Source of the DNA: Gammaproteobacteria bacterium
GTDB lineage: Bacteria > Pseudomonadota > Gammaproteobacteria > Xanthomonadales > Wenzhouxiangellaceae
Direction: 5' to 3'
Length of the DNA stretch: 64,000 nt
Assembly (NCBI GenBank): GCA_021772975.1
Contig: JAJFKY010000020.1
Span: 5,559 to 69,558 of the forward strand
How positions within the stretch are numbered: position 1 is the stretch's first letter; every line of letters begins with the position of its first letter. The notes under the pieces are model-generated. The model was not told the DNA's origin, did not search any database, and worked only from the letters and a program-made list of their open reading frames with translations. This document shows positions 21,728-40,000 of the stretch, piece by piece. Both the position numbers and the translations under genes were made by a program.

Positions 21728-22858
21728 TTAAGCCGAATAATGCCGGCCCTTCCAGCGGGCGCCGCGCCCTGACCAATGCTGCCAGGCGGACAGCCAGGTC
21801 ATGCCGAGATACAGTGTTGCGGTCAACGGCAACCACAGGCCGCTCAGCCGGTTTAACTGATAAAAACGCATCAGCGGCCAATAGCAGATGGTCATCAGCA
21901 ACAGACACAGTACCGCCGCACCCCGGGTGATCCAGCTATCAATCAGTAAGCCGGTCAGCGGCGCCCAGAAGACAATTATCAGCAATACACTGGTGATCAG
22001 TAATAATCCGATGGAATATCGCAGCTGGGTGTAGGCGGTGCGGGCGACCAACTGTGCGACATCGGGCAGCGTGGCGCTGGCCCTGTGACTGAGCACCCCA
22101 TGGCTCAGGCCGATCCAGATCGGATATCCGGCTGCTTTTATTCGCCCGGCCAGGCTGCAGTCGTCAATGACGGCCGATTTAAGGGCGGTATATTCGCCGC
22201 TGGTTCGCAGGGCATCAGTGGTCAGCAGAATGCAGCCGCCCGCGGCGGCGGCGAAGCGTGACCGCCAGTCATTGAGCTGGCCGTTAACCAGTGCAAACGG
22301 GTAGAGCATTTTGAAGAACCATACATAAGCGGGCAGCAGCAGTGTCTGCCAGAAAGTAGCGGTGGGCAGCAGCGCCATGATCGACACCAGGCTGACGGCA
22401 TGGGTTTGCTGGTGATGCAGCAAACGGGCCAGCATGCCGGGCTGCAGCTGGATATCGGCGTCCAGCTGCAGAATCAAGGGGGTCCGGACCTGCTGCAGAC
22501 CCTGCTGGAGCGCCCACAGTTTTCCCGTCCAGCCAGCCGGTAGCCGGGTCCCATGGATCACTTCAGCGCCGGCTTGTCGGGCCAGTTCGGCGGTGGCATC
22601 CCGGGATTGGTCATCAATAACGATAATCCGGTGCCCGGAGCCCTGAAGTTGCACGGCGTGGATGGTTGCGGCGATATGTTCGGCTTCGTTGCGAGCTGGA
22701 ATCAAGACCGTAATATCACTCAAATCAGGGTGCTGTCGGCTGATCACGGAGTCAGGCTCAAGTCGCTCGCGCACGCTCCAGGGCCGCCAGGGCAGGCTCA
22801 CGATGACGACCCAGATCAGGGCCGAGAGCAGGACGCTGTATTCGATCAATACTGTCAC
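21728..22858 (-). CDS. Family 2 glycosyltransferase, hopanoid-associated HpnB-like
   Basis: N-terminal TM, then VLIPARNEAEHI, VIDDQSRDAT, LPAGWTGKLWAL and DADIQL (DxD), followed by C-terminal TM helices. It is the last gene of the hpn block. Confidence 0.6.
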   Translation of the reverse strand: MTVLIEYSVLLSALIWVVIVSLPWRPWSVRERLEPDSVISRQHPDLSDITVLIPARNEAEHIAATIHAVQLQGSGHRIIVIDDQSRDATAELARQAGAEVIHGTRLPAGWTGKLWALQQGLQQVRTPLILQLDADIQLQPGMLARLLHHQQTHAVSLVSIMALLPTATFWQTLLLPAYVWFFKMLYPFALVNGQLNDWRSRFAAAAGGCILLTTDALRTSGEYTALKSAVIDDCSLAGRIKAAGYPIWIGLSHGVLSHRASATLPDVAQLVARTAYTQLRYSIGLLLITSVLLIIVFWAPLTGLLIDSWITRGAAVLCLLLMTICYWPLMRFYQLNRLSGLWLPLTATLYLGMTWLSAWQHWSGRGARWKGRHYSA

Positions 22859-22936
22859 GGCAGGTTTCAGGCCAGTGATAACTTGAGTCCGTTTATGGAC
22901 CGGGCGGGGCGCCCGGGCACGCTTTAAGCTACTGGG

Positions 22937-24097
22937 TCAGGCGGTTTCCTGGTGCTCGGTCCGGGCCTGGTTACCGGCCGGTTGGTCGGTGCTGACGGTT
23001 ACCGGTATGGCATTTTCGGAGCGGGTCTGGCGGTAGGTAATCGGCAACTCCGGTGCAAACGGGCCATCCAGTCTGGGACCGCGGATACTGGCCATCAGAG
23101 CCTTGATGGGATGTGCGAAGGTATCTTCTACCGCGGTACCTTCATAGCCGCAGTGCGCCATGCAGTTATCGCATTTAGGATTGCGGCCGGTGCCGTAATT
23201 TTCCCATTCGGTGGTTTCAATCAATTCGCGATAGCTGCTGGCGTAGCCTTCATCGACCAGCAGATAACACGGTTTTTGCCAGCCGAAGATATTGTAGGTG
23301 ACATTACTCCAGGGCGTGCACTGGTAGCTCTGATTGCCGGCCAGAAAGTCCAGGTACAGGCTGGAGTGATTCAGTGGCCATTTGTTACCGCCCTGTGCCT
23401 CACGCTGCTTGCCTGCACGGAAAATATCGCGGAATAATTGCTTGGATTTATTGCGTGGCAGAAAAACATCCTGATTGGGCGCAAACTGATAACTGTAGCC
23501 GGGGGACACGGTTATGCCTTCCACCCCAAGCTCAACACAGTAGTCAAAAAACTCAGCCACGCGCCCGGGAATTTCACCATCAAACAGCGTGCAGTTGACG
23601 CTGACCCGGAAACCCTTGTCAATTGCCAGCCGGATAGCGGTGGTGGCTTTTTCAAAGATGCCTTCCTGACAGACGGATTTGTCATGTTCCTCCTGCAGAC
23701 CATCCAGATGGATCGACCAGGTGAAATAGGGGGTGGGTTGGTAGTCATCAATTTTCTTGGCCAGCAAAACAGCGTTGGTGCATAAATACACAAACTTTTT
23801 ACGCGCGATGATGCCGCGCACAATTTCCGGCATCTCTTTATGAATCAACGGTTCACCGCCGGGAATCGATACCACTGGTGCATCGCATTCATCCACGGCA
23901 TTTAAAGCTGCTTCCACACTGATGCGCTTTTGCAGAATATCCTTGGGGTATTCAATCTTGCCGCAGCCGGCACAGGCCAGATTGCATTGGAACAAAGGTT
24001 CCAACATCAATACCAGCGGGTATTTTTTATTCCGCTTTAATTTTTGCGTAATAATATATTTGGCAATCCGAAATTGTTGAATGGCTGGTATGCCCAT
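22937..24097 (-). CDS. hpnH: Adenosyl-hopene transferase (radical SAM)
   Basis: 386 aa. MGIPAIQQFRIAKYIITQKL... with the CNLACAGC radical-SAM cluster motif. It has the typical HpnH N-terminus and length. Confidence 0.88.
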   Translation of the reverse strand: MGIPAIQQFRIAKYIITQKLKRNKKYPLVLMLEPLFQCNLACAGCGKIEYPKDILQKRISVEAALNAVDECDAPVVSIPGGEPLIHKEMPEIVRGIIARKKFVYLCTNAVLLAKKIDDYQPTPYFTWSIHLDGLQEEHDKSVCQEGIFEKATTAIRLAIDKGFRVSVNCTLFDGEIPGRVAEFFDYCVELGVEGITVSPGYSYQFAPNQDVFLPRNKSKQLFRDIFRAGKQREAQGGNKWPLNHSSLYLDFLAGNQSYQCTPWSNVTYNIFGWQKPCYLLVDEGYASSYRELIETTEWENYGTGRNPKCDNCMAHCGYEGTAVEDTFAHPIKALMASIRGPRLDGPFAPELPITYRQTRSENAIPVTVSTDQPAGNQARTEHQETA

Positions 24098-24115
24098 GCT
24101 GATATCCTGTTACTT

Positions 24116-24715
24116 TTAAGCTTGATCCGGCTGCGTATAGCGGCGCAATAAGTCTTGATAATCACTGTTCAACCGGGTCCATTCCATTTTGAACCAGGGT
24201 GTGAAACGCTCGGGGTGTTCGCCCAGTTCGCGATCCAGATCAGTGGTATTAATAAACCGGCAGGCCGCGACTTCGGTTTGATTCGGCTGTGGCTGAGCAG
24301 CGCAGCGGCCCAGGTAAACCCAGCACAATTCGCGCTCCGCGCCGGTTTCATCAAATTGTGCATGATACTGGAATTTATACACGAATTCCGCCTCGGTGCG
24401 CATCCCCAGTTCCTGTTCCAGACGGCGTGACACAGCATAATCCACCGATTCGCCGCGGCGCGGATGGCTGCAGCAGGAGTTCGACCAGTACATTGGCCAG
24501 AGCGGTTTGTCAGCACTGCGCTGCTGTAACAGTAATTCGCCCTGTGGATTGAACACGAACAGTGAAAAGGCCCGGTGCAGAGTGCCTTGGTCGCGATGAC
24601 AGGCGGCTTTATCCAGATGGCCGATGGTGCGGTCATTGTCATCCACCAGGATTAAATCTTCGTCGGGAAAAGACACCACCTCGTTCCTGAGTGCGGCATT
24701 GGCTGTATTACCCAT
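24116..24715 (-). CDS. idi: Isopentenyl-diphosphate delta-isomerase, type 1 (Nudix)
   Basis: HRAFSLFVFN, WSNSCCSHP and the E-rich Nudix region. The ATG at 24715 overlaps the stop of the upstream gene by 8 nt. The ORF-track start at 24796 lies inside the upstream gene. Confidence 0.88.
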   Translation of the reverse strand: MGNTANAALRNEVVSFPDEDLILVDDNDRTIGHLDKAACHRDQGTLHRAFSLFVFNPQGELLLQQRSADKPLWPMYWSNSCCSHPRRGESVDYAVSRRLEQELGMRTEAEFVYKFQYHAQFDETGAERELCWVYLGRCAAQPQPNQTEVAACRFINTTDLDRELGEHPERFTPWFKMEWTRLNSDYQDLLRRYTQPDQA

Positions 24716-26969
24716 TAACAGTGACCTCCATGGCCTGATATCCGGCGTTATTGAGTGCTTCAATAACAGTTTGCTGCGTGTCTGGACACAATGCAATAAA
24801 TGCGCCGCCGCCGCCGCCGCCGGTCACTTTGGCGCCCAGCGCACCGTTCTGACGTGCGATCTGTACCATTTCCTCGATTTCCCAGCAGGATACCTGCAGT
24901 GCATTCAACAGACCCTGGCAAACATTCATCAGTTCACCCAGTTGCTGCCAGTCGCCGTTCCGCAAGGCATCCCGGCCCTGCAGTGTCAGGGCATCGATGC
25001 CATGGAACATGCGCTGATAAATAGCCGGGTTTTTCTGCCGCGCGGCGGCTACCCGGGCAACCATTTTGGCGGTCAGGCTTTCCACTCCGCTGTAACCGAT
25101 AACCAGCGGCAGTGGTGCGCCCAGCGACAGCTTTTCCATCAGCTCCGGCCTGCCTTTGAGCGCTTTGCGGAACAGCATCGGATGGCCGTAGGTGGCCATG
25201 GTATTGTCGACGCCGGACGGGCTGCCGTGGGCAACTTTTTCACACTCAAAGGCCAGCGCGTTGACTTCCTCATCACTGAGCTTCAACTGATAATGCTGAT
25301 CCAGCGCGCGGATAATGGCGACCGCCACTGCCGCTGAGCTGCCCAGTCCCACCGCTCGCGGCACGCTCGGGAAAATCTCGATCTTCATCGGCTGGTTGAT
25401 TAATTCCAGCTGCTCCAGAATCAGGGCAATCGGTTTCTCGAATGAATGCCGCTGCTCGGGCCGCATATGCAAACGCTGCTGTGCGCCCCAGCGGGGAATG
25501 ATGATATCGATACCGGCTTCGGTGCTGGTAATTTTTGCCTGAATGGCAAGTGGTACCGGCACCGCCATGGCATGGCTGCCGTAGACCACCGCGTGCTCGC
25601 CGAGCAGAATCACTTTGCCGTGTCCAACCGCCAGCTGTTCGCTGTCGACGATTGCTTCGGCTGACGGATTAACGGTGCCGGCCTGCTGCCTTACGTCATC
25701 CAGAATTTCACGCGCTTTCCAGATTTTGATATCGCCGCTTTCAATCAGACGGTCAACCACCGTATCGAACAGATTCGCGGGTGCGCCAGCCGCCATGGCG
25801 ACGCTGCGGGCATGCAGGGTCATGTGGCCCTGCTGGATACCGCTGGTGACCAGCGCGCGCAGGGCCGAGAAATTCTGCGCCAGACCGACCGCGCCCATCA
25901 GCTCGGCCAGCTCACGCGCTGAGTCCACTTTCAGCATGCGATGGTTGATCATCACCGACTGATTGGATTGTAGGGGACCACCCACGGTGCCGACTTTCAT
26001 GGGGATTTCCAGTTCGCCCACCAGGTTGCCGTCGTTATCCTTGAACCAGCGGGTCAGCGAGCTGTATTGGCCGCTGCGCGCGGCGTAGGCATGCGCGGCT
26101 GCTTCGATCGCGCGCCAGTCGTTGCCGGTCGCCAGCGCTACCGCGTCGACACCGTTCATGATGCCTTTGTTGTGCGTGGCCGCCCGATAGGGATCAACCG
26201 TGGCCAGATCATTGGCCAGAATGATGCCGTCGCGGACCTGTTCGCCATCAAAGCCTTTACCGGCCAGATGTGCCACCGGATAAACCACTTTGGCCTTGAC
26301 CACCGCCCGGTCCGTCAGGTTGGACAGAATCCGCAGAAATACCTTGCCGCCGGTGATGCTTTCCACCAGTGAGGCAACGCCTTCACACATGGTATTGACC
26401 AGGTTGGCGCCCATCGCGTCGCAGGTATTGACCAGCAGATGAATCACCAGCATGTTGGCGCCGGTGGATGGTGAGCGGTGCAGATGGACTTCCAGACCTT
26501 TGGCGCCGCCGCCGCGTGCCACCATTTTAGGATGCAGGCTATTGGCCAGGTTGATGATCTCGTCACTGCGCTGCAGGATGATCGAGCGGGTCTTGCTGGG
26601 GTGGGTGATATCCACCACCTGAATCTGGCCGATCAGAATGGGTTCGGTACTCTCCGCGGTAAAACCACCGGTGTTCAGTGCCAGTTTGGCAGCCGAACTG
26701 ATCGCCGCCACAATCGACGGTTCTTCCACCGCCATCGGCACAATGTAAGGTTTACCGTTGACCACAAAATTCAGACCGATCCCCATCGGTATGCCCAGCA
26801 CACCAATGACATTTTCGATCATTTTGTCAGCCGTGGCCGGGTCCAGCAGATGCTCACCACTGCTGAGCAGACGGTAATCTTCGTTGGACAGCAAGCCGCG
26901 CTCATGCACCGCGCGGACACGATCTTTGAGGCTTAAACGATAAAAACTGGGAATCCGAGATTGTTCCAT
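24708..26969 (-). CDS. Bifunctional class II HMG-CoA reductase / mevalonate kinase (single-ORF fusion)
   Basis: N-terminal ~430 aa carry ENVIG, CDAMGANLVN, KVGTVGG and QQGHMTLHAR (class II HMGR). C-terminal ~310 aa carry GKVILLGEHAVVYG, PRAVGLGSSAAVAVA and KVTGGGGGGAFIAL (GHMP mevalonate kinase). The frame is continuous. The likely start is the ATG at 26969 (MEQSRIP). Confidence 0.88.
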   Translation of the reverse strand: MEQSRIPSFYRLSLKDRVRAVHERGLLSNEDYRLLSSGEHLLDPATADKMIENVIGVLGIPMGIGLNFVVNGKPYIVPMAVEEPSIVAAISSAAKLALNTGGFTAESTEPILIGQIQVVDITHPSKTRSIILQRSDEIINLANSLHPKMVARGGGAKGLEVHLHRSPSTGANMLVIHLLVNTCDAMGANLVNTMCEGVASLVESITGGKVFLRILSNLTDRAVVKAKVVYPVAHLAGKGFDGEQVRDGIILANDLATVDPYRAATHNKGIMNGVDAVALATGNDWRAIEAAAHAYAARSGQYSSLTRWFKDNDGNLVGELEIPMKVGTVGGPLQSNQSVMINHRMLKVDSARELAELMGAVGLAQNFSALRALVTSGIQQGHMTLHARSVAMAAGAPANLFDTVVDRLIESGDIKIWKAREILDDVRQQAGTVNPSAEAIVDSEQLAVGHGKVILLGEHAVVYGSHAMAVPVPLAIQAKITSTEAGIDIIIPRWGAQQRLHMRPEQRHSFEKPIALILEQLELINQPMKIEIFPSVPRAVGLGSSAAVAVAIIRALDQHYQLKLSDEEVNALAFECEKVAHGSPSGVDNTMATYGHPMLFRKALKGRPELMEKLSLGAPLPLVIGYSGVESLTAKMVARVAAARQKNPAIYQRMFHGIDALTLQGRDALRNGDWQQLGELMNVCQGLLNALQVSCWEIEEMVQIARQNGALGAKVTGGGGGGAFIALCPDTQQTVIEALNNAGYQAMEVTVNG

Positions 26970-27058
26970 AACTACCTTTACCGTGGCATGGATAGTTTGC
27001 TTACAGACCAAAAGTCCGGTTCAGCGTATTTGTTATCCAATGCCTGTCTACAGTTCAT

Positions 27059-28129
27059 CTAGGGCTCATTGGGAAATGATTGATCCGTAGTCATTACTAC
27101 GCCTTGTTCCGCCGGGGACAATTCTAACAGACCATAGCCGGCTGCTTGTACCCGCCGGCCGAAATCAGCCAGCGCGTGGGTATCAATGGCGGCGGCGATA
27201 GCGATATCGCCACCGCCGGCGCCGGAGGGTTTGAATGCGACCCCATAATCCGACGCCAGTTGCGCCAGCCGCCGATGGGCGTCGGTGTAGACCGGTGCAT
27301 CAGCAGCGGTGCCCAGTGCCTGCATGGCCTGGCCATAAGCCGTCAGGCATTCCAGCAATTGCGTGGAATCGCCTTGCCGCACCGCGCTGAGACCGCGTTC
27401 TGATAGTTGGCCAAGCTGTTGCAGGTGGGTTGCGTAGCGGCGCGGATGGCTGGCTTTAAAGTGATCCATACGGCTTAGAAATACCCGGGTCGACGCTGAC
27501 TGTCCCAACCATATCCAGATGCACTCAACTTCGCCGGGCCAGCTTAAGGCCTGCACCCTGCAATCATGGCCGTCGATCCGATAGCTGCTCAGGCCGCCCC
27601 ACAGGCTGGCGGCGATATCCGCGCCGCTGCCGCGTCCATCCTGCAGATTACGATGCAACTGCACCAGCAGTGGCAGCCAGCGCCGCCGGTCAAAGTTCTG
27701 ACCCGGATGCCGGAGTTGAAACCAGGCAGCCGCCAGCGCCACGGTTAAGGCGGCGCTTGAGCCGAGTCCGGTTTTATCACCCGCGGGCGTGAAAAAATCG
27801 TGGGTGTCCAGACTTAATGACCAGCTTTGCTGTTGGTCGGCTGCCGCCGGTTGCCAGGCACCCAGTGCATGCATCAATGGGGCGACAAAAGGCAGGCGTT
27901 GATTATTACTGTCGTGTTGCCATTGAAAGCGGCCCTCCGCATCGAAATAAAAAGCCACCGGTTCGTTCACCAGGGGCGGAGCAGTGAGCTGGTAATCCGG
28001 TGCCGGGCAAAGCTGAATACGGGCCTGTTTATCCACTGCCTGCACCATCGCAGGATAGCCTTCCAGAACCGCGTATTCGCCCAGAATCAGGGCTTTGCCG
28101 GGCGCGCTGACCTGAATGGACGGTATCAT
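27059..28129 (-). CDS. mvaK2: Phosphomevalonate kinase (GHMP/ERG8 type)
   Basis: SAPGKALILGEYAVLEG, TGLGSSAALTVALAAA, KPSGAGGGDIAIA. There is an ATGA start/stop overlap with the upstream decarboxylase. Confidence 0.82.
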   Translation of the reverse strand: MIPSIQVSAPGKALILGEYAVLEGYPAMVQAVDKQARIQLCPAPDYQLTAPPLVNEPVAFYFDAEGRFQWQHDSNNQRLPFVAPLMHALGAWQPAAADQQQSWSLSLDTHDFFTPAGDKTGLGSSAALTVALAAAWFQLRHPGQNFDRRRWLPLLVQLHRNLQDGRGSGADIAASLWGGLSSYRIDGHDCRVQALSWPGEVECIWIWLGQSASTRVFLSRMDHFKASHPRRYATHLQQLGQLSERGLSAVRQGDSTQLLECLTAYGQAMQALGTAADAPVYTDAHRRLAQLASDYGVAFKPSGAGGGDIAIAAAIDTHALADFGRRVQAAGYGLLELSPAEQGVVMTTDQSFPNEP

Positions 28130-29130
28130 TCCGAGGCCGGCCTCAGGCGCACGCCCTGACCCAGTCCGCAGTGGATGATATCGATCACCCCGGGAACCTG
28201 CCGCAATTGCTCGGCCACCTGAGCCTCAGCGGCTGCGGTACAGACAGCTTTAACCTGCGGTCCGGCATCCATGGTGAAACACACTTCCAGACCGGCGGCG
28301 CGCCATGCGCGAATGCCGTGCAGGGCCGCTACGCTGGCGGCATTCCAATACAGTACACCCGGCTGGGCCGCCAGCGCTGAGGCGTGCATTTTCAGCGTGC
28401 TGAATTCGGTAACGCTGGCCAGCGCGTCAAAATCCCGCCGTGCTATCGCCTCACGGGCAGTGTTCAGATCGGCTTCCGCACCCGCCACCCAGGCCGGGTA
28501 ATAGGGGGAGGTCTCGGTGGTCAACTGCATGCCGTCGGTGGAGCTGATTTTTTTGCTGCCGGCATCGGTGACCGCAATCAGAACCTTCAAATCCCAGTAG
28601 TCTGGCGGATACAGCGGATGAGCGATGCAGTCTCGGCCATCGCTGCGCTGCCCATGCGCCATCTCTACGATGCCACCAAAAATCGAGCGCGCGGCAGAAC
28701 CCGAGCCACGCCGTGCCAGCAGCGATAACCCGGCGCTGTCGATATCAGCCTGCAGTGCGCTGCTAGTGGCCAGTGCCAGGGCCGCAAAGCCGGACGCCGA
28801 GGAGGCCAGCCCGGCGGCAGTGGGAAAATTATTGTGGCTGCTGATATATGCATACGGACGCTGTTGCCCGGCGTTATGCAGATAGGCAAACACCCGATCC
28901 AGAAAGACGCTGATACGCTCCGCCGCGACTGCCTCAGCAGGCTGCTGATTTAATTCAATCTGATCCCCTTTCAGGCCGGTATCAAAACTGACCGAGGTGG
29001 TGGTGGTCAAGGCATCCAGGGTCAGCGAGAGTGAACCGGTGGCGGGCAGATTAAGCCGCTTATCACGCTTACCCCAGTATTTGATCAGCGCGATATTGGC
29101 GTGCGCAATGGCAGTGGCGGAAGAATTAAT
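28126..29130 (-). CDS. mvaD: Diphosphomevalonate decarboxylase
   Basis: NFPTAAGLASSASGFAALA and RRGSGSAARS motifs. The conserved N-terminal block ANIALIKYWGKRD lies upstream of the ORF-track TTG start (29010). The 5' end is set at an ATT codon 6 nt after an AAGGAA SD-like sequence; this 5' end is uncertain. Confidence 0.8.
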   Translation of the reverse strand: MNSSATAIAHANIALIKYWGKRDKRLNLPATGSLSLTLDALTTTTSVSFDTGLKGDQIELNQQPAEAVAAERISVFLDRVFAYLHNAGQQRPYAYISSHNNFPTAAGLASSASGFAALALATSSALQADIDSAGLSLLARRGSGSAARSIFGGIVEMAHGQRSDGRDCIAHPLYPPDYWDLKVLIAVTDAGSKKISSTDGMQLTTETSPYYPAWVAGAEADLNTAREAIARRDFDALASVTEFSTLKMHASALAAQPGVLYWNAASVAALHGIRAWRAAGLEVCFTMDAGPQVKAVCTAAAEAQVAEQLRQVPGVIDIIHCGLGQGVRLRPASE

Positions 29131-31471: not shown

Positions 31472-34094
31472 CGGTCCGGGGCAGCAGAGCCGGCAGCACC
31501 AGCAGTGTTGCCAGCACCATCAGAGTCAGTCCCAGCGCCAGCAGCAGACCCATGCTGGCGGTGCCGGTGTGGGTGGAAAACATCAGATTGCCGAAGCTCA
31601 GCACCGTGGTGAGTGCGCCGAACACAATACCGCGTGCGGTGGTGGTGCGCAGCACATTGCCTTCGCGAACGTGCACCGCGGCCGGCATATCACCGCTGCG
31701 ATGGCGATAGACCAGATGCACCCCGTTATCCACCGCCACCCCCAGTAATAACGGCAGCGCGACGACATTGGCAAAATTCAGCGGTACCCCCAGCAGCACC
31801 AGCATGGCGCCGGTGACCAGCCCGCCCAGCAGCAACGGCACCATCACCCGGGCACTGTCAGCGACGCTGCGCAGGATAATCAACAGCACCAGCGTGATGC
31901 CGGCCAGCGCCAGCAGCAACGCGGTACGCAAGGCTGCGCTGATTGCCTGGCCGGAGCGCAATTGCAACACCGGCATGCCGGTGACCTGGGGCGCGACTGC
32001 ACGCACCTGCTCGATCAATTCGCTGACATCGGTAAAACTGTTGGTATCCACGGCAGGGAAAATCTGTACGATGTGCGTGCCTGCGTCACTGACCCAGCGG
32101 TCGTGTATCTGGGCGGGCAGATCCTTGACGGTAACGTACTGGTCCACGCTCAAAGCCTGCTGCATGCGCTGCAGCGTAGCGGGCAGCAGCCCGACCAGGG
32201 CACGATTGAGTTTGCTATAAGCAGCTGTGTCAGGCTGGCTGTCCTGAAATTGGCTCAGCCTGCCGGCCAGTTGCCGGGCGGCGTCCGAATCCAGACTCGG
32301 CAGCTCCGTGCTGAGTTGATCAAGCGCAGTTTTCAGTCGCTGAATGTCCGGTTCCGGCAAGTTTTCCGGGATGTTCAGCAAATCCAGCCCGGTGGTCCAG
32401 CGCAGGTCCTCCAACAGCAGCAGTTTTTCATCCTGGTCAGCGGGGACCAGATCCAGTACTGAAATAGCACGTGCTACGCCGGGCAGTTCACGCAACCGGG
32501 TACTGATCCGCGCTGCGCTGGCGGCATCATCGGCCAGCACCTGCAGATTGCGATGGCCGGTGGAGCGGCTCTCCAGCAGCTGGCGCAGCGTGGCAACTGA
32601 TTCTGAACGGCCATCGCGCAGATTCAGAGGGTCACTGTCGAACGGTAACTGCCAGGCCAGCACCAGGCTGGCCAGCGCCACCAGCAAAGCGGCAATGCGC
32701 ACCCGGTTGCGATAAATCAACGGACCGTCCAGCCAGGCTGTGGGAATTGACAGCGATGGGCGTTTCGGCTTTATGTCGGGGGCGGGAATCACCGCGAGCA
32801 GGGCCGGCAACAGGCTGTAACTGATTATGAAAGTGATGAACATCGCTACGCCGGCAATCAGACCCAGCTCAGCCACGCCGCGAAAAGCGGTGGGTATAAA
32901 GGCGAAAAAGCCGATCGCGGTGGTCACGGCGCTCAATGCCAGCGCGCCGGCCAGCAGGCGGGCACTGGACATGATGGCGCTGAGCTTGTCCGGCTGCTGG
33001 ACCAGCTGCTCGCGATAACGCAGCATGAAGTGGATGCCATAATTCACCCCAAGCCCGATATACAGCACCGTAAAGGCGATTGAAATCAGATTGATACGAC
33101 CCACCGCCCAGGCGGCAAAACCCAGAGTCAGGGCAAAACCGACCGTCAATGACAGTAATGCGACAGCGACCAGACGCACCGAGCGCAAACCCCACAGCAT
33201 TACCAGAGCAACCAGGATCAGCGCCAGAATGCCCGCTTGTCTGGCGCCGGTCAGTGCGCTCAACAACTCTTCATGCTCCAGTGCGACCGGTCCGGTCAGC
33301 AGCATACGCACTGCCTGATCGGTGCCCAGGTTCAATTCCTGGCGGATGCTATCAGCGGCCTGCATCACCTCCCGGCCTGCCATAACCTGGTCGAAGTTCA
33401 GGCGCGGTTCGACGATCAGTGTTTCGCGAAATAGGGGGCTGGCTTGAGCCACTCCCGGGGTCTGAAAAAACAACTGCTCCCAGGACAGCGGGCGTGACTG
33501 AGCGCTCAGCAGCTGATCGATGGTGTGCTCCAGGGCCGGCAGGATGCTGTCCAGCCCGACCGCCTGTGTCTGGCTGTATGCGCTGGCTTCGCTGAGCAGT
33601 TCCAGTAAAGTGGCCGCTTGCAGATCTTCGCTCAGCCGACTTAAAAAGGGCTGCGCGGTGCTCAGCCGGTCGCCCAGCTGGTTGAGTTGTTGAGGGGATA
33701 AAAACAGCAGTCCGTTGCGTTGAAAATAAGCCTCACCGGCCAGCCAGTCGACCGCGGCAAAGTGCTGAGGATCGCGCAGCAACCGGCTTTTGACCTGTTC
33801 GGCCGCGCGGCGCGCCTGTTCCGGAGTGGGGCCTTCCACTACCACCAGCAGGTTATTGGCCAGGGTGGGAAACTCGCGCCGGAAACGATCAAAGGTCTGC
33901 CGGAACGGCAGCCTGGCGTCGAGCATGTCGGCGGTATCGGTATTGACCCCCAGATGACCGGCGGTGTAGTGCAGGGAGCCGGCGCTGAGCAGCAGCAGAG
34001 CGACGATGATCAACCACGGATAACCAACCACCCAACCCAGCCAGCGGGTGATGGCGCGGTGCAGCAGATGGGTGTGATCGGGTGGCGGGGGCAT
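31452..34094 (-). CDS. hpnN: Hopanoid-associated RND/MMPL-type transporter
   Basis: 880 aa with two blocks of 6 TM helices and two large periplasmic loops. It sits in hpn context. Confidence 0.8.
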   Translation of the reverse strand: MPPPPDHTHLLHRAITRWLGWVVGYPWLIIVALLLLSAGSLHYTAGHLGVNTDTADMLDARLPFRQTFDRFRREFPTLANNLLVVVEGPTPEQARRAAEQVKSRLLRDPQHFAAVDWLAGEAYFQRNGLLFLSPQQLNQLGDRLSTAQPFLSRLSEDLQAATLLELLSEASAYSQTQAVGLDSILPALEHTIDQLLSAQSRPLSWEQLFFQTPGVAQASPLFRETLIVEPRLNFDQVMAGREVMQAADSIRQELNLGTDQAVRMLLTGPVALEHEELLSALTGARQAGILALILVALVMLWGLRSVRLVAVALLSLTVGFALTLGFAAWAVGRINLISIAFTVLYIGLGVNYGIHFMLRYREQLVQQPDKLSAIMSSARLLAGALALSAVTTAIGFFAFIPTAFRGVAELGLIAGVAMFITFIISYSLLPALLAVIPAPDIKPKRPSLSIPTAWLDGPLIYRNRVRIAALLVALASLVLAWQLPFDSDPLNLRDGRSESVATLRQLLESRSTGHRNLQVLADDAASAARISTRLRELPGVARAISVLDLVPADQDEKLLLLEDLRWTTGLDLLNIPENLPEPDIQRLKTALDQLSTELPSLDSDAARQLAGRLSQFQDSQPDTAAYSKLNRALVGLLPATLQRMQQALSVDQYVTVKDLPAQIHDRWVSDAGTHIVQIFPAVDTNSFTDVSELIEQVRAVAPQVTGMPVLQLRSGQAISAALRTALLLALAGITLVLLIILRSVADSARVMVPLLLGGLVTGAMLVLLGVPLNFANVVALPLLLGVAVDNGVHLVYRHRSGDMPAAVHVREGNVLRTTTARGIVFGALTTVLSFGNLMFSTHTGTASMGLLLALGLTLMVLATLLVLPALLPRTDGGSRV

Positions 34095-34119
34095 CAGTGG
34101 TTGCAGCGCTATAACGGGT

Positions 34120-34767
34120 TTATTCTTCCGCCATCCGCTGGGTTTGGGTCTGGATGTACTCCACTACAGCGTCCAGTCCTCCGGTCTCGAACAGCTTACT
34201 GTATTGCGAGCGTTTCAGTGCCAGATCACTGACCCCGCGGGTGGTGATATTGACGATCCGCCACTCGCCATGCTGTCGCAGCAGCAGGTAATCAAATGCA
34301 ATTCGCTCACCTTTGCCGGTAATCAGTTCATGTCGGACCTGAGCCCGGTTTTCGCCCGGTTGCGCAGCGCTGACCGGGGCAAAGCGCTCGTTGTTGAAAG
34401 TTGTAAAACGCGCTGCGTAGTTGGCCACCGTCAGGGCGCTGAAAGCCGCGCTGAAGCGGGCCTGTTCAGAGGCGCCGAACTCATTCCAGCGGCTGCCAAA
34501 CAAAAACCGCCCCATGCGGGGAAAATTAAATGCGCGTGCGATCACCGGCTGCAGGCGTTCGCTGCGGCCGGTATGGTTTAGCAGGTCGGTCTGCATACTG
34601 TTTAACAGGCTCTGCTCGAGGCTGTCCACCACCGCTTCAGGAGCTGCGTCAGCGGCGGCTGGCAGGCTTTGGGGCGGGGTCGGATTGTCGGCCTGGGCGA
34701 TGCCGGGCGGACTCAGATACAGCACCGTGGTGAGGCTGAAAATCAGGATAATGGCTGGCCTACGCAT
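34120..34767 (-). CDS. MlaC/Ttg2D-family periplasmic lipid-binding protein (HpnM-like)
   Basis: Signal peptide, 215 aa, with FNFPRMGRFLFGSRW and the FDYLLRQHGEWRIVNI pattern of toluene-tolerance Ttg2D proteins. It is adjacent to hpnN. Confidence 0.7.
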   Translation of the reverse strand: MRRPAIILIFSLTTVLYLSPPGIAQADNPTPPQSLPAAADAAPEAVVDSLEQSLLNSMQTDLLNHTGRSERLQPVIARAFNFPRMGRFLFGSRWNEFGASEQARFSAAFSALTVANYAARFTTFNNERFAPVSAAQPGENRAQVRHELITGKGERIAFDYLLLRQHGEWRIVNITTRGVSDLALKRSQYSKLFETGGLDAVVEYIQTQTQRMAEE

Positions 34768-34793
34768 GCTTTTGATCCTTACTGTTGTTTCGG

Positions 34794-35477
34794 TTAGTGA
34801 GGCAGGTCACGCAGCACTGCCGCCGCCGTCAGCAAACGCTGGCGCGCCAGCCGTTGCGCTCTGCCCAGAGCATAGACGTCACGCAGCCGGGCAGGTTCAC
34901 GCGCCAGCCAGCCGGCCAGCTTTAGCTTATGCGGCTGGGCAAAAGCATCGCAGCAGTCGATCAGACCACCGGGCAAAACCTGTTCGGCCGAGTCCAGTAC
35001 CGCCCGGATCACGATCGCAGGCACATCCTGCAGTGCGGCATTTCGCAGTACGGCGGCGCTTTCCATATCAGCGCTGGCGGCACCGGTAGCTGCCGCCAGC
35101 GCCGCTTTGTCTGAACGCGATGCCAACACCGCATGTGTTTCGGCCAGGGGCGCATCACAAACCTCAGTCTGGCATTGATTGAACCGTTGCCGGACACTGG
35201 TCAGTTTTGGCTGATCGCATACCAGGTTCTCACCATCGCTGGCTATCACCTGCGACGGCAGCAGCAAGCTGCCGCCGCGCAGGTCCACTCGCAGACCCGC
35301 CGCGCAGCCAAAACTGATCAGAGTGCGCGCACCCTGGGCCAGCAATGCCTTAGCCCCGGCCCCGGCCGCCTCAGCTCCCATGCCGGTCAGTTGCCAGCGA
35401 ATCCCGGTTGATCGTTTCAATACCCGTTGTAAACACTGTGCCTCCCAGCGCAGCGCCACCACTATTCCAATGCTCAT
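34794..35477 (-). CDS. hpnG: Hopanoid-associated nucleosidase/phosphorylase
   Basis: PNP/UDP family (MSIGIVVALRWEA ... ADMESAAV). The ATG at 35477 avoids overlap with shc. Confidence 0.75.
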   Translation of the reverse strand: MSIGIVVALRWEAQCLQRVLKRSTGIRWQLTGMGAEAAGAGAKALLAQGARTLISFGCAAGLRVDLRGGSLLLPSQVIASDGENLVCDQPKLTSVRQRFNQCQTEVCDAPLAETHAVLASRSDKAALAAATGAASADMESAAVLRNAALQDVPAIVIRAVLDSAEQVLPGGLIDCCDAFAQPHKLKLAGWLAREPARLRDVYALGRAQRLARQRLLTAAAVLRDLPH

Positions 35478-35499
35478 GTCCGCCCGGCGCAGTACGAAT

Positions 35500-37476
35500 T
35501 CAAGCCGGGCTTGCCGGGTCGCCAAGCTGGCGATAGCGGCTTAACGCCCACAACGGGAAATAATGGTTATAGCCGTGATAGCGCAGATAAAACACCCTCG
35601 GAAAGCCGGGCGCGTTGAACCAGGGGTCACTCCAGCTGCCGTCGGACTGCTGATGGTCGATTAACCAGTTGATGCCGCGTTTGACGGCCGGATGCTGAGT
35701 CTGGCCCGCCGCCATTAGAGCCAGTAAGGCCCAGGCGGTGTGACTGCCGCTGCTGAACGGCGCCTGGCCGTTGAGTTCAGGCTGGTCGTAACTGTGATTG
35801 GTTTCGCCCCAGCCGCCGTCTTCGCGCTGGCGTGACAGCAGATAATCAACCGCCCGCTGAAGGTACGCCTGCCGCGGGTCCTCGCCGGCAAAGATCAGCC
35901 CTGCCAGGACACTCCAGGTGCCATAAATATAGTTGGTACCCCAGCGGCCCCACCAGGAACCATCCGCCTGCTGATGGGCTTTCAGATAAGCGATGCAGTT
36001 TTGTATCGCCTGCCGATCGCATGGGCGCCGCAACATGCCCAGCGGCAGCAATACACGACCGGATACATCTTCGGTGGCGGGGTCCAGCAGTGCGCCGTGA
36101 TCGGCAAACGGAATACTGTTGAGATAGTACTTATCATTGTTTGCATCAAATGCGGCAAAACCACCGCGATTACGCCCCCGGCTGGACTGCAGTCCTACCA
36201 GCCAGTCGCAGGCTTGATGGATGGCATCGGTGTATTGGCCATCCTGGTTAACCACCTGCAGCAACGCCGCGACCATGGCGGTGTCATCCAGATCGGGGTA
36301 ATGCGGATTGGCATACTGGAAAGCCCAGCCACCGGGCGGTACGCCGGGAGCCTGAATCGCCCAATCACCGATAAATTCGGTTTCCTGTTTGCTGATCAAC
36401 CAGTCGCAGGCGCGTTGGATGGCCTGTTGGGTGGCTGCATCGTCACCGGCTCTCAGTAACGCCACCGCTGCCCAGCCGGTATCCCAGACCGGCGATACGC
36501 AGGGCTGACAATAGGCGCTGCCGTCTGGATATTCCACCAGCAGTTTTTCAATCGAACGTTTGCAGGTGGCGCGCAGCGGATGATCCTTGGGATAACCGAG
36601 ACAGTCCAGCGCCATGCAGGCGTTGACCATGGCTGGAAAGATGGCGCCCAGGCCATCTTCACCGTTCAGGCGTTTGACAAACCACTGTTCGGCACGCTGG
36701 ATGGCACGGCGGCGGATAAAAGCCGGCACCAACGGCTCGAGACAGTACAGCGAGAAACGCTCCAGGCCCTGCAGAAAGCCATTTAAGCGCGAACGTCGAG
36801 GGAAATAATCACGCACCTGCTCCGGTGGCGTGACAAACAGTTCCTGGATATCTACCCGGTTGGGATTAACGGCCTTCGGCTTATATGCATACAGCACAAA
36901 CAGCGGCACCATGACCGTGCGTGACCAATAGGATACCTTGCTGATATGAAATGGAAACCAGCGCGGCATCAGCATCACTTCGGGTGGAATAAACGGTACC
37001 GCCCGCCATGGCACCTGCTCGAACAGCGCCAGAGCAATGCGGGTAAACACATTCGCGCGTTCCGCACCGCCGGCCGCCCGAATGGCGGTGCGGGCCTGCT
37101 GCATATGCGCGGCATCCACGGCGTGACCGGCCAGCTTGAGCGCATAATAAGCCTTCACGGTGCAACTGATATCCATCGCGCCGCCGGTATATAAGGGCCA
37201 ACCGCCATCTTCCTGCTGGTGCCGGCACAGATATTTCGCCAGACGCTGCTGCAGCCCGGTATCAATTTCATCCATGCAGTGCATCATCATGATGTACTCA
37301 GCGGGGATGGTGCAATCGGCTTCCAGTTCGAAACACCAGTGACCATCAGCATGCTGGTGATCCAGCAGGTTAGCCCGGCCACGTGCAATCGCCTGATCCA
37401 GGCCGCGCTCCGTCTGGGGCGCCCGATCCGGGGGCTGATGGTCTGTCTGCTTGCGGCTGGCCAGGGATACTTGCAT
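35500..37476 (-). CDS. shc: Squalene-hopene cyclase
   Basis: 658 aa. DxDDTA motif (YPDLDDTAMV) and multiple QW repeats (GGWG, DGSW). Confidence 0.95.
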   Translation of the reverse strand: MQVSLASRKQTDHQPPDRAPQTERGLDQAIARGRANLLDHQHADGHWCFELEADCTIPAEYIMMMHCMDEIDTGLQQRLAKYLCRHQQEDGGWPLYTGGAMDISCTVKAYYALKLAGHAVDAAHMQQARTAIRAAGGAERANVFTRIALALFEQVPWRAVPFIPPEVMLMPRWFPFHISKVSYWSRTVMVPLFVLYAYKPKAVNPNRVDIQELFVTPPEQVRDYFPRRSRLNGFLQGLERFSLYCLEPLVPAFIRRRAIQRAEQWFVKRLNGEDGLGAIFPAMVNACMALDCLGYPKDHPLRATCKRSIEKLLVEYPDGSAYCQPCVSPVWDTGWAAVALLRAGDDAATQQAIQRACDWLISKQETEFIGDWAIQAPGVPPGGWAFQYANPHYPDLDDTAMVAALLQVVNQDGQYTDAIHQACDWLVGLQSSRGRNRGGFAAFDANNDKYYLNSIPFADHGALLDPATEDVSGRVLLPLGMLRRPCDRQAIQNCIAYLKAHQQADGSWWGRWGTNYIYGTWSVLAGLIFAGEDPRQAYLQRAVDYLLSRQREDGGWGETNHSYDQPELNGQAPFSSGSHTAWALLALMAAGQTQHPAVKRGINWLIDHQQSDGSWSDPWFNAPGFPRVFYLRYHGYNHYFPLWALSRYRQLGDPASPA

Positions 37477-37500
37477 GGTCTTATTTTGTCTGGTTATGCC

Positions 37501-38655
37501 TCAGGCGTGCATGGATTGTATTTTGACTGAGTTGCTACTGTCATCGGGATATTCAAAGCTCGGGTCGCAATCATCGTAGTTGGGTACCGGACGCTCAAAG
37601 TTGCTGATTTCGGTTATCGGTAAATGTTGACCGGCCTTGCTGAATAACCATTTCAGCAGTTTGTTGCTGCGCCCGAACAGTTTGCTCAGCACAATCACCT
37701 GCCTGACCCGGCGGCGGCTGACTTTGACCTCCTGACCACTGCGAAAGTGCGGCAGCTGGTGGATGTTTTTCAAGGTCAGAATGGCCAGCCCCAAAGCCCA
37801 CAGGCAAAACTTACGGATGCCGCCCTCTTTACGCGGCAGCATCAAGGTATAACGCAGCGCATTTTGAATATGTCCATGGGTGATGCCGATCAAGACATTC
37901 AGCGCCTGCTGAAAGTCAGCTGACTGATGCTGCGTTTCCAGTTGTGCCAGGGACACGCCGTGCTGGCGGAAAGTGGCCTGCGGCCACCAGCATACGCCGC
38001 GGCTGCGATCATCCCATACATCTTTGAGAATATTGGTCATCTGCAGCGCCTGTCCGAACGAGGGCGCCAGCTGCATCAACTGCTCACGTTGCCGTTCAAT
38101 GGCCGGGTCGTGGTGGCAGAACAGGTCGGTAAGCATTTCGCCCACCACGCCGGCGACGTAGTAGCAGTAAAAATCCAGATCACGCTGTGCCGCCAGACCG
38201 CTGCTGCAGGCGCTGCGCTGATAATGATTCATGCCGCGTCCCATCACCTGCACACAGCGGTATAGAGCCTGTTGCTGACCGCCCGACAGGCTGCGGGTAA
38301 CCGCAATGACCTGATGGGTGTTGGCAATCAACTCGCGTTCCGCCGCGAGTGTCTCCGGGGCCACCAGCGGTGCCACGCTATGGGCAAACTGGCGGGCATC
38401 GGAATGACCGGCGATGACCTCGATAAACTGTTGCTGATACTGAATTTTTTGCTGGGTATTCCAGGCGGCGTCATCTTCGATCGTATCGGCGATGCGGCAC
38501 AACAGGTAGGCGTTGGCCACCGCGATGTAGAGATCCTTGGGAAGCTGTGGAATCGTCAACGCAAAAGTGCGTGACACCGAAGCCAGGATATTTTCCTGAT
38601 AGGCCAGCGCGGAGGCCAGTGTGTCCTGAGCGGATACTGAAAGCGTTGCTTGCAA
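37501..38655 (-). CDS. sqs: Squalene synthase (single-enzyme, eukaryote-like farnesyl-diphosphate farnesyltransferase)
   Basis: SVSRTFALTIPQLP, LLCRIADTIEDD, YCYYVAGVVGEML and NILKDVWDD motifs. The start is uncertain: TTG at 38655 after AGGGAG, or ATG at 38829, which would add a non-conserved 58-aa extension. Confidence 0.82.
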   Translation of the reverse strand: MQATLSVSAQDTLASALAYQENILASVSRTFALTIPQLPKDLYIAVANAYLLCRIADTIEDDAAWNTQQKIQYQQQFIEVIAGHSDARQFAHSVAPLVAPETLAAERELIANTHQVIAVTRSLSGGQQQALYRCVQVMGRGMNHYQRSACSSGLAAQRDLDFYCYYVAGVVGEMLTDLFCHHDPAIERQREQLMQLAPSFGQALQMTNILKDVWDDRSRGVCWWPQATFRQHGVSLAQLETQHQSADFQQALNVLIGITHGHIQNALRYTLMLPRKEGGIRKFCLWALGLAILTLKNIHQLPHFRSGQEVKVSRRRVRQVIVLSKLFGRSNKLLKWLFSKAGQHLPITEISNFERPVPNYDDCDPSFEYPDDSSNSVKIQSMHA

Positions 38656-39097
38656 GATTGTGTGCTCCCTGGTTAGCCAATAACCGGCTTGATCACAGCC
38701 ACTATACCCGGCTGAGTCCTGGTTGGCCGCAATTGACTGCCGGCAGGGCAGTCGGCGAACCGCCGCGACAACGGGCTGGCGGCCTGCATCATCATTACAA
38801 TAGGTGTGCTTGAGTAACCCATAAATCAACCAAAGACTACTGTAGTCATCTGTCCAGGCATCCCTGCACCCACCTGCTGATGTTCCTCATCCGGTGTTTA
38901 GCCGCGTAGTATAATCGCTTGTTAAAATGTAACCCAAACCTCTGGTTATGCACGGTTGCCCGCCGGCTCTTTGCCAGCCGTAACAGCTGGCCTGTACCAA
39001 ACGGTTTCCGGGCAGGTTTCGCGCGGCGTGGAGGCAATATTTGATTAGCGATACCGGCGTCATTCACGCTGGTCAAAGTGACGGAATCTGGAGCGAT

Positions 39098-40000
39098 ATG
39101 ACCCACAACGACAGTTTCGCTGAGCAATCAGCAATCCTGGTGCAGCGCATTAATCAGTATCTGGACGAGTTGCTGTCACAGTCTTGCAGCAGTGAGCGTC
39201 TGCGGCAGGCGATGCGCCATGCGGTGCTGGCGGGCGGCAAGCGTATCCGGCCCTTGCTGGTATACGCCGCCGGCAGGCTGGCCGGTGCCGAGTTGCGCAA
39301 CCTGGATGCGGCCGCGGCCGCGGTTGAACTGGTGCACTGTTATTCGCTGGTACACGATGATCTGCCTGCCATGGATGATGATGATTTACGCCGTGGCCGT
39401 CCAACCCTGCACAAAGCCTTTGATGAGGCGACCGCTATTCTGGCGGGTGACGCGCTGCTGGCGCTAGCATTTCAATGTCTGGCGGATGCCGCCGCGGACT
39501 ATCCTGATTCGCGCGCAGTGACCGCCAGTCTGCGCGTGCTGGCGCATGCCAGTGGCGGCGCTGGCATGGTCGGCGGTCAGATGCTGGATATCGCCATGGC
39601 CGGCAGTTATCCGGACAAGGCACTGGTTGAACAGATGTTCAGCCTCAAAACCGGTGCGCTGATTCATGCCGCGGTGATGATGGGGGGGTATGCCTCGCGC
39701 CAGGCACCTGACCAGCAACTGAGTGCCCGGCTATCACATTTCGGCACAGCCATCGGCTTATGCTTTCAGGTTCAGGATGACATTCTGGACGTCACCGGCG
39801 ATACCGCCCGGCTGGGCAAGCCGCAGGGCTCGGACGAAGACAAGGATAAACCCAATTACGCGTTGCGTTACGGTCTGGATGTAGCCCGCCAGCGGGCCGA
39901 TGATTTATTTGCCGAAGCACACCAGAGTCTGGCGGAATACGGCTCCCGGGCTGAGCCGTTACGCTGGATGGCGGCGTATATTACCCGCCGCGATTACTAG
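39098..40000 (+). CDS. ispA: (2E,6E)-farnesyl diphosphate synthase
   Basis: FARM LVHDDLPAMDDDDLRRG and SARM FQVQDDILD. The ATG at 39098 has a GGAG RBS. It is divergent from sqs. Confidence 0.9.
   Translation: MTHNDSFAEQSAILVQRINQYLDELLSQSCSSERLRQAMRHAVLAGGKRIRPLLVYAAGRLAGAELRNLDAAAAAVELVHCYSLVHDDLPAMDDDDLRRGRPTLHKAFDEATAILAGDALLALAFQCLADAAADYPDSRAVTASLRVLAHASGGAGMVGGQMLDIAMAGSYPDKALVEQMFSLKTGALIHAAVMMGGYASRQAPDQQLSARLSHFGTAIGLCFQVQDDILDVTGDTARLGKPQGSDEDKDKPNYALRYGLDVARQRADDLFAEAHQSLAEYGSRAEPLRWMAAYITRRDY

Follow-up and report, generated by a model that had tools for sequence, protein, structure and literature searches.

Thirteen genes linking hopanoid synthesis, a lower mevalonate cassette, and a predicted sulfotransferase in the Wenzhouxiangellaceae: a candidate source of sulfated hopanoids

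Why would a bacterium place isoprenoid precursor genes and a sulfotransferase gene inside what looks like an operon for hopanoid synthesis? Hopanoids are major bacterial membrane lipids and are among the most abundant molecular fossils, and the question is raised by a 64,000-nucleotide stretch of contig JAJFKY010000020.1 (assembly GCA_021772975.1, positions 5,559 to 69,558) from a gammaproteobacterium of the family Wenzhouxiangellaceae. We refer to this whole stretch as the window. Thirteen co-directional open reading frames (ORFs) on its minus strand, at 21728-38829, encode in order from sqs a squalene synthase (SQS), squalene-hopene cyclase (SHC), HpnG, HpnM, HpnN, HpnA, a sulfotransferase (ST), diphosphomevalonate decarboxylase (MVD), phosphomevalonate kinase (PMK), 3-hydroxy-3-methylglutaryl-CoA (HMG-CoA) reductase fused to mevalonate kinase (HMGR::MK), isopentenyl diphosphate (IPP) isomerase (IDI), HpnH, and a family 2 glycosyltransferase (GT2). 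On balance, we lean toward the view that this block is a consolidated supercluster for the biosynthesis and export of hopanoids (bacteriohopanepolyols, BHPs) around the lower mevalonate (MVA) cassette of the lineage, with the MVA genes as the general IPP supply and with hpnA and the ST gene as a lineage-specific addition making an exported sulfated hopanoid.

Genes were assigned through Pfam and NCBIfam profile matches, and cutoff refers here to the curated threshold of a family. The identities that the original prediction had read from the letters were confirmed for all thirteen ORFs, with HpnG and PMK as probable assignments (best matches below the cutoff); each ORF lies where it had been placed and carries the expected domains, and the family matches also bear out a pathway on paper from HMG-CoA to ribosylhopane plus export. 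The short spacers and start/stop overlaps agree with the ORF coordinates, which upholds the operon-like packing. The widest gap, 89 nt, precedes the HMGR::MK gene, and gaps of 78 nt and 52 nt precede the GT2 and ST genes, respectively. The PMK and MVD genes share an ATGA (28126-28129), idi and the HMGR::MK gene overlap by 8 nt (24708-24715, the idi ATG at 24715 overlapping the HMGR::MK stop), and hpnA and hpnN overlap by 20 nt (31452-31471) with the longest hpnA start or by 8 nt with a GTG start at 31459. Given these short spacers and overlaps, co-transcription is favored. Scans for promoters and terminators lend this no help, given that counts equaled those in shuffled sequence and all minus-strand hairpins were intragenic, so that they neither favor nor disfavor a single transcript. 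If the MVA genes are essential, internal promoters are likely within the block, and the 89-nt gap is a candidate site. The block has a GC content of 0.56-0.61, close to that of its flanks, and thus no compositional sign of recent transfer; the window flanks are ordinary chromosome (gyrA, purK, SMC, ligA, and trpS), and no tRNA gene, as an island marker, was found in the window.

The layout had been taken as undescribed for hopanoids, and comparison with other genomes shows that it is not peculiar to this window. The nearest loci come from three other Wenzhouxiangellaceae assemblies, the metagenome-assembled genomes (MAGs) L004 and L005 (OZ245999.1) and GCA_021772985.1 (L002), in which the gene order of the window is kept at about 90% identity for HMGR and HpnH and 69-71% for the ST. 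Conservation of order at that level of ST identity indicates that the arrangement did not arise by chance. In L002, no HpnB-like GT2 of full length is present, and an additional GHMP kinase of 318 aa, standing alone, is encoded at 15611-16567, between HMGR::MK and idi. Further afield, the core MVD-PMK-HMGR::MK-idi-hpnH is common to the window, Dyella (L084), Nevskia (L085), Arenicellales (L086), the isolate Litchfieldella qijiaojingensis (L087, GCA_014651875.1, 1-17864), and a metagenomic contig (L088). In Dyella, the core is followed by GT2 and accompanied by hpnA-?-hpnL-hpnK-hpnJ-hpnI; in Nevskia, it is followed by GT2 and an HMG-CoA synthase gene; the window block differs from both in lacking hpnI-J-K-L and the synthase, respectively. 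The Arenicellales locus reads sqs-hpnG ahead of the core. An upstream arm of sqs-shc-(hpnG)-hpnM-hpnN is found in the window, in L087 (sqs-shc-hpnM-hpnN before the core, then hpnG-hpnL, hpnA, and a Sulfotransfer_3 gene), and in L088 (sqs-shc-hpnG-hpnM-hpnN before the core, then GT2), the last being the window block minus hpnA and ST. We infer from these gene orders that the backbone is an old arrangement common to several gammaproteobacterial families.

No publication describing an MVA-in-hopanoid layout was found in the literature on Wenzhouxiangella, Xanthomonadales, Rhodanobacteraceae, or Nevskiales. The suggestion that the fusion is undescribed therefore stands as far as the searched literature goes, but the layout itself is present in many public genomes, including those of cultured strains. 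Judged from gene order, hopanoid-MVA nesting is a clade-wide, undescribed but common gammaproteobacterial arrangement. A second layout was seen in three other Gammaproteobacteria MAGs (L021, L045, and L050), where ispA is divergent from sqs-hpnG-hpnN-hpnA-MVD-PMK-HMGR, the ST gene lies on the far side of ispA, and neither shc nor hpnM stands between sqs and hpnN; shc is presumably elsewhere.

Measured against canonical hpn clusters (Zymomonas, Rhodopseudomonas, Burkholderia, Acidobacteria, and Alphaproteobacteria), the window likewise brings together shc, hpnH, an hpnG-like gene, hpnN, hpnM, hpnA, and an hpnB-like glycosyltransferase gene, and it differs in having one SQS for HpnC/D/E, a nested complete lower MVA cassette, and a sulfotransferase. 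It had also been claimed that hpn clusters carry no precursor pathway of their own, which is too strong, given that precursor genes, for example ispA or ispH, belong to acidobacterial hpn clusters, with ispA adjacent in "cluster B" as it is in the window (PMC5462960). In addition, MVA genes occur together with shc, hpnH, and a gene of the SQS type in an Acidobacteria SD22 MAG, "Mor1," in which no genes of the methylerythritol phosphate (MEP) pathway were detected and which was described as making BHPs "in a completely different way" (PMC5462960). Mor1 belongs to a different phylum, however, and neither a nested operon nor a sulfotransferase was described for it, unlike the window.

Does the nested cassette serve hopanoids alone or the whole cell? 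Streptomyces MVA cassettes, to which the window had been likened, carry HMG-CoA synthase and a type-2 IDI. In both settings, the MVA genes are contiguous with a terpenoid pathway, whereas the block in the window has no HMG-CoA synthase, a type-1 IDI, and an HMGR fused to MK. The model that follows from the analogy, in which the cassette is a dedicated extra hopanoid supply and housekeeping isoprenoids are made via MEP elsewhere, strikes us as unlikely. The nesting among hpn genes and the operon-like packing speak for it. Litchfieldella, which belongs to the Halomonadaceae, has a near-identical supercluster, and this would be in keeping with a self-sufficient module that spread horizontally. 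Halomonadaceae normally use MEP, and the Litchfieldella supercluster may reflect horizontal transfer into a MEP-using family. The missing HMG-CoA synthase and the type-1 IDI argue against a dedicated module, as do the syntenic flanks and a GC content close to that of the surroundings, which argue for long residence.

The related genus Wenzhouxiangella offers a further comparison. The genome paper on strain AB-CW3 names squalene synthase and the MVA pathway as features that set Wenzhouxiangella apart from Marinicella (PMC7691419). The gene table of that strain lists an MVD of 326 aa, a GHMP kinase of 350 aa, an HMGR of 757 aa (the fused length), and an IDI of 199 aa in a cassette that stands alone, away from hpn genes; three of these four proteins have non-zero values in the abundance columns, and IDI has none. 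Our search of gene names covered 2.29 Mb, or about two thirds, of the table, with 1,325 rows outside it. Within that part, no name contained "erythritol" or "methylbut-2-en," and the sole "xylulose" name was a YajO annotation. Given that seven dispersed MEP genes are unlikely all to fall in the remaining third, MVA appears to be the general IPP route of this family. In AB-CW3, the cassette is thus apparently the sole IPP route, unlike the "dedicated" cassettes of Streptomyces. With its stand-alone cassette in AB-CW3, no HMG-CoA synthase in the block, and a type-1 IDI, the Streptomyces-style analogy is doubtful, and the MVA genes of the window most likely represent the general IPP supply of the cell and not a dedicated extra. 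Two points count against this part of our account: the absence of MEP is drawn from two thirds of a table for another genus, and neither a thiolase nor an HMG-CoA synthase was found in the cluster, in its immediate flanks, or among the window ORFs of at least 150 aa that were scanned (several smaller ORFs lay outside the scan). With no HMG-CoA synthase in the scanned ORFs, HMG-CoA must come from elsewhere. Nesting of the sole or main IPP pathway in a hopanoid operon would couple an essential pathway to hopanoid gene expression, and the nested MVA genes would mark Gammaproteobacteria that replaced or supplemented MEP with MVA.

What sets the window clade apart is the hpnA-ST pair. These two genes lie between hpnN and MVD only in the window, L002, L004, and L005, in contrast to the backbones of L084 through L088, and hpnA is absent between hpnN and MVD in both Litchfieldella and L088. 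Comparison with L088 shows an exact two-gene indel (L088 7696-7747 versus window 29131-31471), with hpnN followed directly by MVD in L088. The flanks of the two loci are syntenic (Reprolysin, Rieske, hydantoinase B, and superoxide dismutase [SOD]); the hpnN-MVD junction in such a setting indicates that hpnA and ST were gained or lost together as a two-gene module. We infer that the pair forms a unit and a lineage-specific module.

The ST gene (29149..30399, minus strand) is predicted to encode an Stf1-like sulfotransferase dependent on 3'-phosphoadenosine 5'-phosphosulfate (PAPS), matching Sulfotransfer_3 (PF13469) at E 3e-46 with 158.8 bits against a cutoff of 27, and it matches no NCBIfam model. 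The database entry for the protein (P0001) starts one Met later than the 417-aa version. It has more than 1,400 close homologues, and a search with E up to 1e-30 returned 1,905 clusters at 50% clustering. In an alignment of 26 homologues, G115, P117, R118, and G120 of a GLPRTGT stretch are invariant, and L116, T119, and T122 are nearly so; T271, H272, R273, and P275 of a THRDP stretch are invariant as well, together with S281 and S284. We take these two stretches to be the PAPS-binding loops for the 5'-phosphosulfate and the 3'-phosphate. A profile search of the PDB retrieved 2zq5 (E 7e-90) and 2z6v (E 1e-74). The AlphaFold2 model (mean predicted local distance difference test score, 89.5) was compared with Stf1 of Mycobacterium tuberculosis (2zq5) via Foldseek, giving template-modeling (TM) scores of 0.79/0.89 at 33% identity; it also superposes on Stf9 of M. 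avium (2z6v), and TM scores for Stf1 and Stf9 together range over 0.77-0.89. Neither a signal peptide nor a transmembrane segment was visible in the N-terminal sequence, as read by eye without a predictor. On the strength of the model and the conserved loops, the protein appears to be a functional PAPS enzyme of the Stf1 type.

The likeness to mycobacterial Stf1 and Stf9 thus covers the fold and the conserved stretches, at an identity of about 26-33%; the window ST differs in belonging to another phylum and in having hpn neighbors instead of cyp128. Stf3 of M. tuberculosis is presumably of the same group as Stf1. Stf3 sulfates menaquinone after hydroxylation by Cyp128 (PMC7404182), and the Stf3/Cyp128 pair thus sets a precedent in which the product of one gene makes an isoprenoid lipid alcohol and a neighboring sulfotransferase sulfates it.

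We considered whether the genes around ST homologues at large point to a hopanoid acceptor. All ORFs within 7 kb of an ST were clustered across 81 genomic loci. An hpn-type neighbor was found at 34 of them, and the commonest neighbors were HpnL (20 loci), HpnN (18), HpnM (11), HpnG-like (8), and HpnA (8); the representatives of the first two scored 333 bits against a cutoff of 196 (HpnL, TIGR03476) and 861 against 752 (HpnN). In a rough neighbor-joining tree, every hpn-linked ST except that of L007 falls in one subclade, where 34 of the 44 members are linked, the window included, and most of the ten unlinked members sit on short contigs. Members of the subclade come from Gammaproteobacteria, Thermodesulfobacteriota/Syntrophobacteraceae, Nitrospira, Methylomirabilota, Binatia, and Verrucomicrobiia. 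In two loci (L014 and L027), the ST adjoins shc, hpnG, or hpnH; in another (L089, 5140-10983), it lies between an HpnN-like transporter gene of the resistance-nodulation-division (RND) type with a sterol-sensing domain and a gene for a bifunctional ATP-sulfurylase/APS-kinase, that is, a PAPS synthase; and one homologue (P0092) is fused to an HpnL-type domain. Litchfieldella also has a Sulfotransfer_3 gene next to hpnA and hpnL. It was considered as an orthologue of the window ST and rejected, given that the two proteins share 23% identity (E 3e-13) and belong to different subfamilies.

We hypothesized that the ST sulfates the hopanoid side chain. In the pathway that we propose, HMG-CoA made elsewhere would be converted to IPP and dimethylallyl diphosphate by HMGR::MK, PMK, MVD, and IDI; IspA would then supply farnesyl diphosphate (FPP), the one-enzyme SQS squalene, and SHC hopene. 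HpnH would form adenosylhopane and HpnG ribosylhopane, after which HpnA, a short-chain dehydrogenase/reductase (SDR) resembling aldehyde/ketone reductases, would reduce open-chain ribosylhopane to bacteriohopanetetrol (BHT). The cytoplasmic Stf1-like ST would use PAPS to esterify a side-chain hydroxyl at the cytoplasmic face. HpnN and HpnM are predicted to carry the pathway product to the outer membrane, and the anionic sulfated hopanoid would be exported via the same two proteins. HpnA has been suggested elsewhere as a possible ribosylhopane-to-BHT reductase (PMC5462960), and Frateuria aurantia, a member of a related family, makes BHT (PMC3910546).

Several observations weigh against a sulfated hopanoid. 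The ST tree is a rough neighbor-joining tree, and about half of the whole ST family has no hpn neighbor. A CDP-alcohol phosphatidyltransferase gene is near the ST at 5 of the 81 loci, and the ST-HpnL pair occurs with it in several lineages, which points to a phospholipid-type substrate; in one case (L090, 6279-9224), the three genes form a tight CDP-alcohol phosphatidyltransferase-HpnL-ST operon. No PAPS-synthesis genes were found among the window ORFs of at least 150 aa that were scanned, several smaller ORFs being outside the scan, and the searchable literature yielded neither the phrase "sulfated hopanoid" nor a report of one. The family names HpnL, HpnM, HpnA, and HpnB rest on gene context, with functions that are not established (PMC12583986).

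It is conceivable, then, that the ST acts on a non-hopanoid substrate, such as the head group of a phospholipid or glycolipid, an isoprenoid alcohol of the quinone type (as with Stf3), or a glycan, and is found here through shared flipping and export of the HpnL/HpnN/HpnM type. We regard this as somewhat unlikely, but the recurrence of the CDP-alcohol transferase context, in triads with no shc nearby, keeps a non-hopanoid lipid acceptor a serious rival. AB-CW3 pairs a gene with an LPG_synthase_TM domain (the HpnL Pfam domain) with a sulfotransferase, and no "hopene" or "hopanoid" name occurs in the two thirds of its table that were covered; moreover, Stf-type enzymes act, or are suspected to act, on a diverse set of substrates. 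Set against these points are the insertion of ST and hpnA together inside a hopanoid operon, as an exact indel relative to L088, the position of the ST next to shc, hpnG, or hpnH in L014 and L027, and the independent recruitment of an unrelated second Sulfotransfer_3 to the hopanoid cluster of Litchfieldella. The other alternative is that sulfation is transient and activates the hydroxyl as a leaving group, as in CurM/OLS domains, retinol dehydratase, and LGS1, so that the product would be an unsaturated, anhydro, or cyclized side chain. This is improbable: such enzymes do occur among the more distant structural matches of the ST (4gbm, 4gox, 1fml, and 22ga), but these matches are weak (TM about 0.3, 11-15% identity) compared with Stf1 and Stf9 at 0.77-0.89, and the block has no partner thioesterase or cyclase.

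We return to sulfation of a hopanoid, for which the hpnA-ST insertion and the link of the ST subclade to hpn genes constitute a real lead toward a candidate sulfated hopanoid. The claim that a sulfotransferase in a hopanoid cluster is undescribed held up, given that the searched literature on hopanoids and sulfotransferases gave no such description. More tentatively, the unnamed and widespread Stf1-like subfamily as a whole may be a hopanoid tailoring enzyme. Under this broader proposal, sulfated BHPs would occur in several phyla (in Wenzhouxiangellaceae and other Gammaproteobacteria, Nitrospira, Thermodesulfobacteriota, Methylomirabilota, and Binatia) and would have escaped BHP analysis in its standard positive-ion or acetylation-based form. 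HpnA would then be the reductase, long sought, that turns ribosylhopane into BHT and so supplies the hydroxyl, while flipping and export of the anionic lipid would fall to HpnL, HpnN, and HpnM. If so, these lipids would be a new charged class of BHP that would bear on the biophysics of membranes in saline and alkaline habitats. They would matter for biomarker surveys, given that current extraction and liquid chromatography-mass spectrometry may miss such lipids, and HpnA and the HpnL/HpnN/HpnM export genes would gain a testable role. Litchfieldella qijiaojingensis, a cultured halophile with an equivalent cluster, is a ready experimental system.

One gene of the MVA part calls for a correction to the original prediction. 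The mvaD gene (diphosphomevalonate decarboxylase, 28126..29130, minus strand; TIGR01240, 220 bits against a cutoff of 171) encodes a conserved N-terminal motif with none of ATG, GTG, or TTG as a start upstream of it, which is a point against a working cassette. The sole in-frame canonical start, TTG at 29010, would drop about 40 conserved residues, and for the ORF read from this TTG, the TIGR01240 match sets in at profile position 37; gene callers shorten MVD to 294 aa. The ST stop TGA lies in the mvaD frame, 18 nt upstream of an ATT (29128-29151), and is followed by the in-frame sequence TSKEPVINSSATAIAHANIALIKYWGKRD. An AAGGA precedes the ATT at 29130 by 7 nt, and three relatives have ATG at the equivalent position. 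The mvaD start is thus likely the ATT at 29130, and translation of this possibly essential gene may accordingly be weak or coupled. One could instead read the cluster as partly decayed, with mvaD as a pseudogene that has lost its start and the MVA part nonfunctional as drawn, in line with the missing start codon and the 294-aa call. We consider this very improbable: the mvaD frame runs unbroken across the conserved N-terminus, AAGGA, a good Shine-Dalgarno sequence, stands 7 nt before the ATT where relatives have ATG, and the other MVA genes are all intact. In tblastn, the proteins of the window cluster also match a Logan contig (L001) at 100%, with the same 294-aa call.

The remaining MVA genes complete the cassette. 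The probable PMK gene (27059..28129, minus strand) has a GHMP_kinases_N domain, and its best NCBIfam match is the PMK model TIGR01220, at 110 bits against a cutoff of 166; the PMK slot between MVD and HMGR::MK is kept in all relatives. The class II HMGR::MK fusion gene (24708..26969, minus strand) scored 426 bits against 260 for TIGR00532 (residues 13-401) and 255 against 163 for TIGR00549 (residues 464-741). Among the matches listed for this protein, 120 of 120 have both domains, and all but one (1131 aa) measure 744-780 aa; their sources are Wenzhouxiangella, Nevskia/Sinobacteraceae, Dyella/Rhodanobacter, Arenicellales, and Litchfieldella, and by these matches the fusion is common in Gammaproteobacteria. 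The idi gene (24116..24715, minus strand) encodes a type-1 (Nudix) IPP isomerase (NF002995, 176 bits against a cutoff of 127).

Upstream in the pathway, sqs (37501..38655, minus strand) is predicted to encode a single-enzyme squalene synthase of the eukaryotic type (Pfam SQS_PSY, E 7e-55). Its best NCBIfam match is the squalene synthase model TIGR01559, below its cutoff, and among solved structures, squalene synthases are nearest to it, with CrtM and phytoene synthase ranking behind them. We place the start at 38655, as called in L001, although the longest ORF reaches 38829. The three-enzyme HpnC/HpnD/HpnE route was not found in the block, where the scores for HpnC and HpnD fell well short of the cutoffs and an HpnE-type amine oxidase was absent, and a single SQS, by these profile matches, replaces hpnCDE. 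The FPP synthase gene ispA (39098..40000, plus strand; NF045485, 323 bits against a cutoff of 275) is divergent from sqs, as had been predicted; its longest ORF runs from 39041 to 40000, and translation from the ATG at 39098 yields a protein of 300 aa, as long as the one called in L002. The intergenic region between the two genes (38656..39097) presumably holds promoters, and it contains no inverted repeat and no Rfam match, with promoter scans at the level of shuffled sequence. An Rfam scan of 20000-41000 with E up to 0.1 found no riboswitch or other RNA.

Among the hopanoid genes proper, shc (35500..37476, minus strand) has both SQHop_cyclase domains and scored 780.7 bits against a cutoff of 431.1 (TIGR01507). 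The hpnG-like gene (34794..35477, minus strand), for a nucleoside phosphorylase predicted to convert adenosylhopane to ribosylhopane, has a PNP_UDP_1 domain and a best NCBIfam match to HpnG (TIGR03468) of 125 bits against a cutoff of 187, and its syntenic position is kept in relatives. Export is represented by hpnM (34120..34767, minus strand), encoding an MlaC-like periplasmic lipid-binding protein (Pfam MlaC, E 2e-33; TIGR03481, a borderline 158.1 bits against 160.1), and by hpnN (31452..34094, minus strand), encoding an RND (HAE3/MMPL) hopanoid transporter (TIGR03480, 846 bits against 752). The hpnA gene (30455..31459, minus strand; TIGR03466, 461 bits against 368) encodes an extended-SDR reductase or epimerase. 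The protein resembles reductases (PDB 3wj7, dihydroflavonol reductase, and cinnamoyl-CoA reductase) more than sugar epimerases, and its match to 3wj7, a "putative oxidoreductase," at E 4.5e-112 shows that the structure of a close homologue of HpnA has been solved. We take 3wj7 to be Gox2253 of Gluconobacter, an NADPH-dependent aldehyde reductase, though a literature search for Gox2253 gave no confirmation. The radical-SAM adenosylhopane synthase gene hpnH (22937..24097, minus strand) scored 523 bits against 225 (TIGR03470), and the hpnB-like GT2 gene (21728..22858, minus strand) scored 343 bits for HpnB (TIGR03469), below the cutoff of 379; the hpnH-GT2 pair is common to Dyella, Nevskia, and L088. 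Families HpnI, HpnJ, HpnK, HpnO, HpnP, and HpnR were absent among the matches of the window ORFs scanned.

Just past the last gene of the cluster, at 18849-21682, the window carries a Rieske/Ring_hydroxyl_A oxygenase gene and a gene for a reprolysin-like metalloprotease. Both also stand beside the cluster in L088, and the oxygenase gene does so in L002. The oxygenase (18849-19940) was considered as an SdmA-like partner of HpnA and rejected, given that it had weak matches to GbcA-type models alone and none to an SdmA model. The SOD and hydantoinase B genes are adjacent in L088 as they are in the window. Farther along, the region at 9200-15800 has a low GC content (0.35-0.50, compared to about 0.57 elsewhere) and is possibly a horizontally acquired island; it carries genes for an alginate-export-family porin, a CHASE-domain histidine kinase, and a response regulator, as well as a 322-aa ORF with no Pfam match. 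Past the opposite end of the cluster, a 517-aa ORF at 50309-51862 (minus strand) has a cupin domain at its C terminus joined to a RuBisCO large-chain catalytic domain (E 1e-19), an unusual RuBisCO-like fusion.

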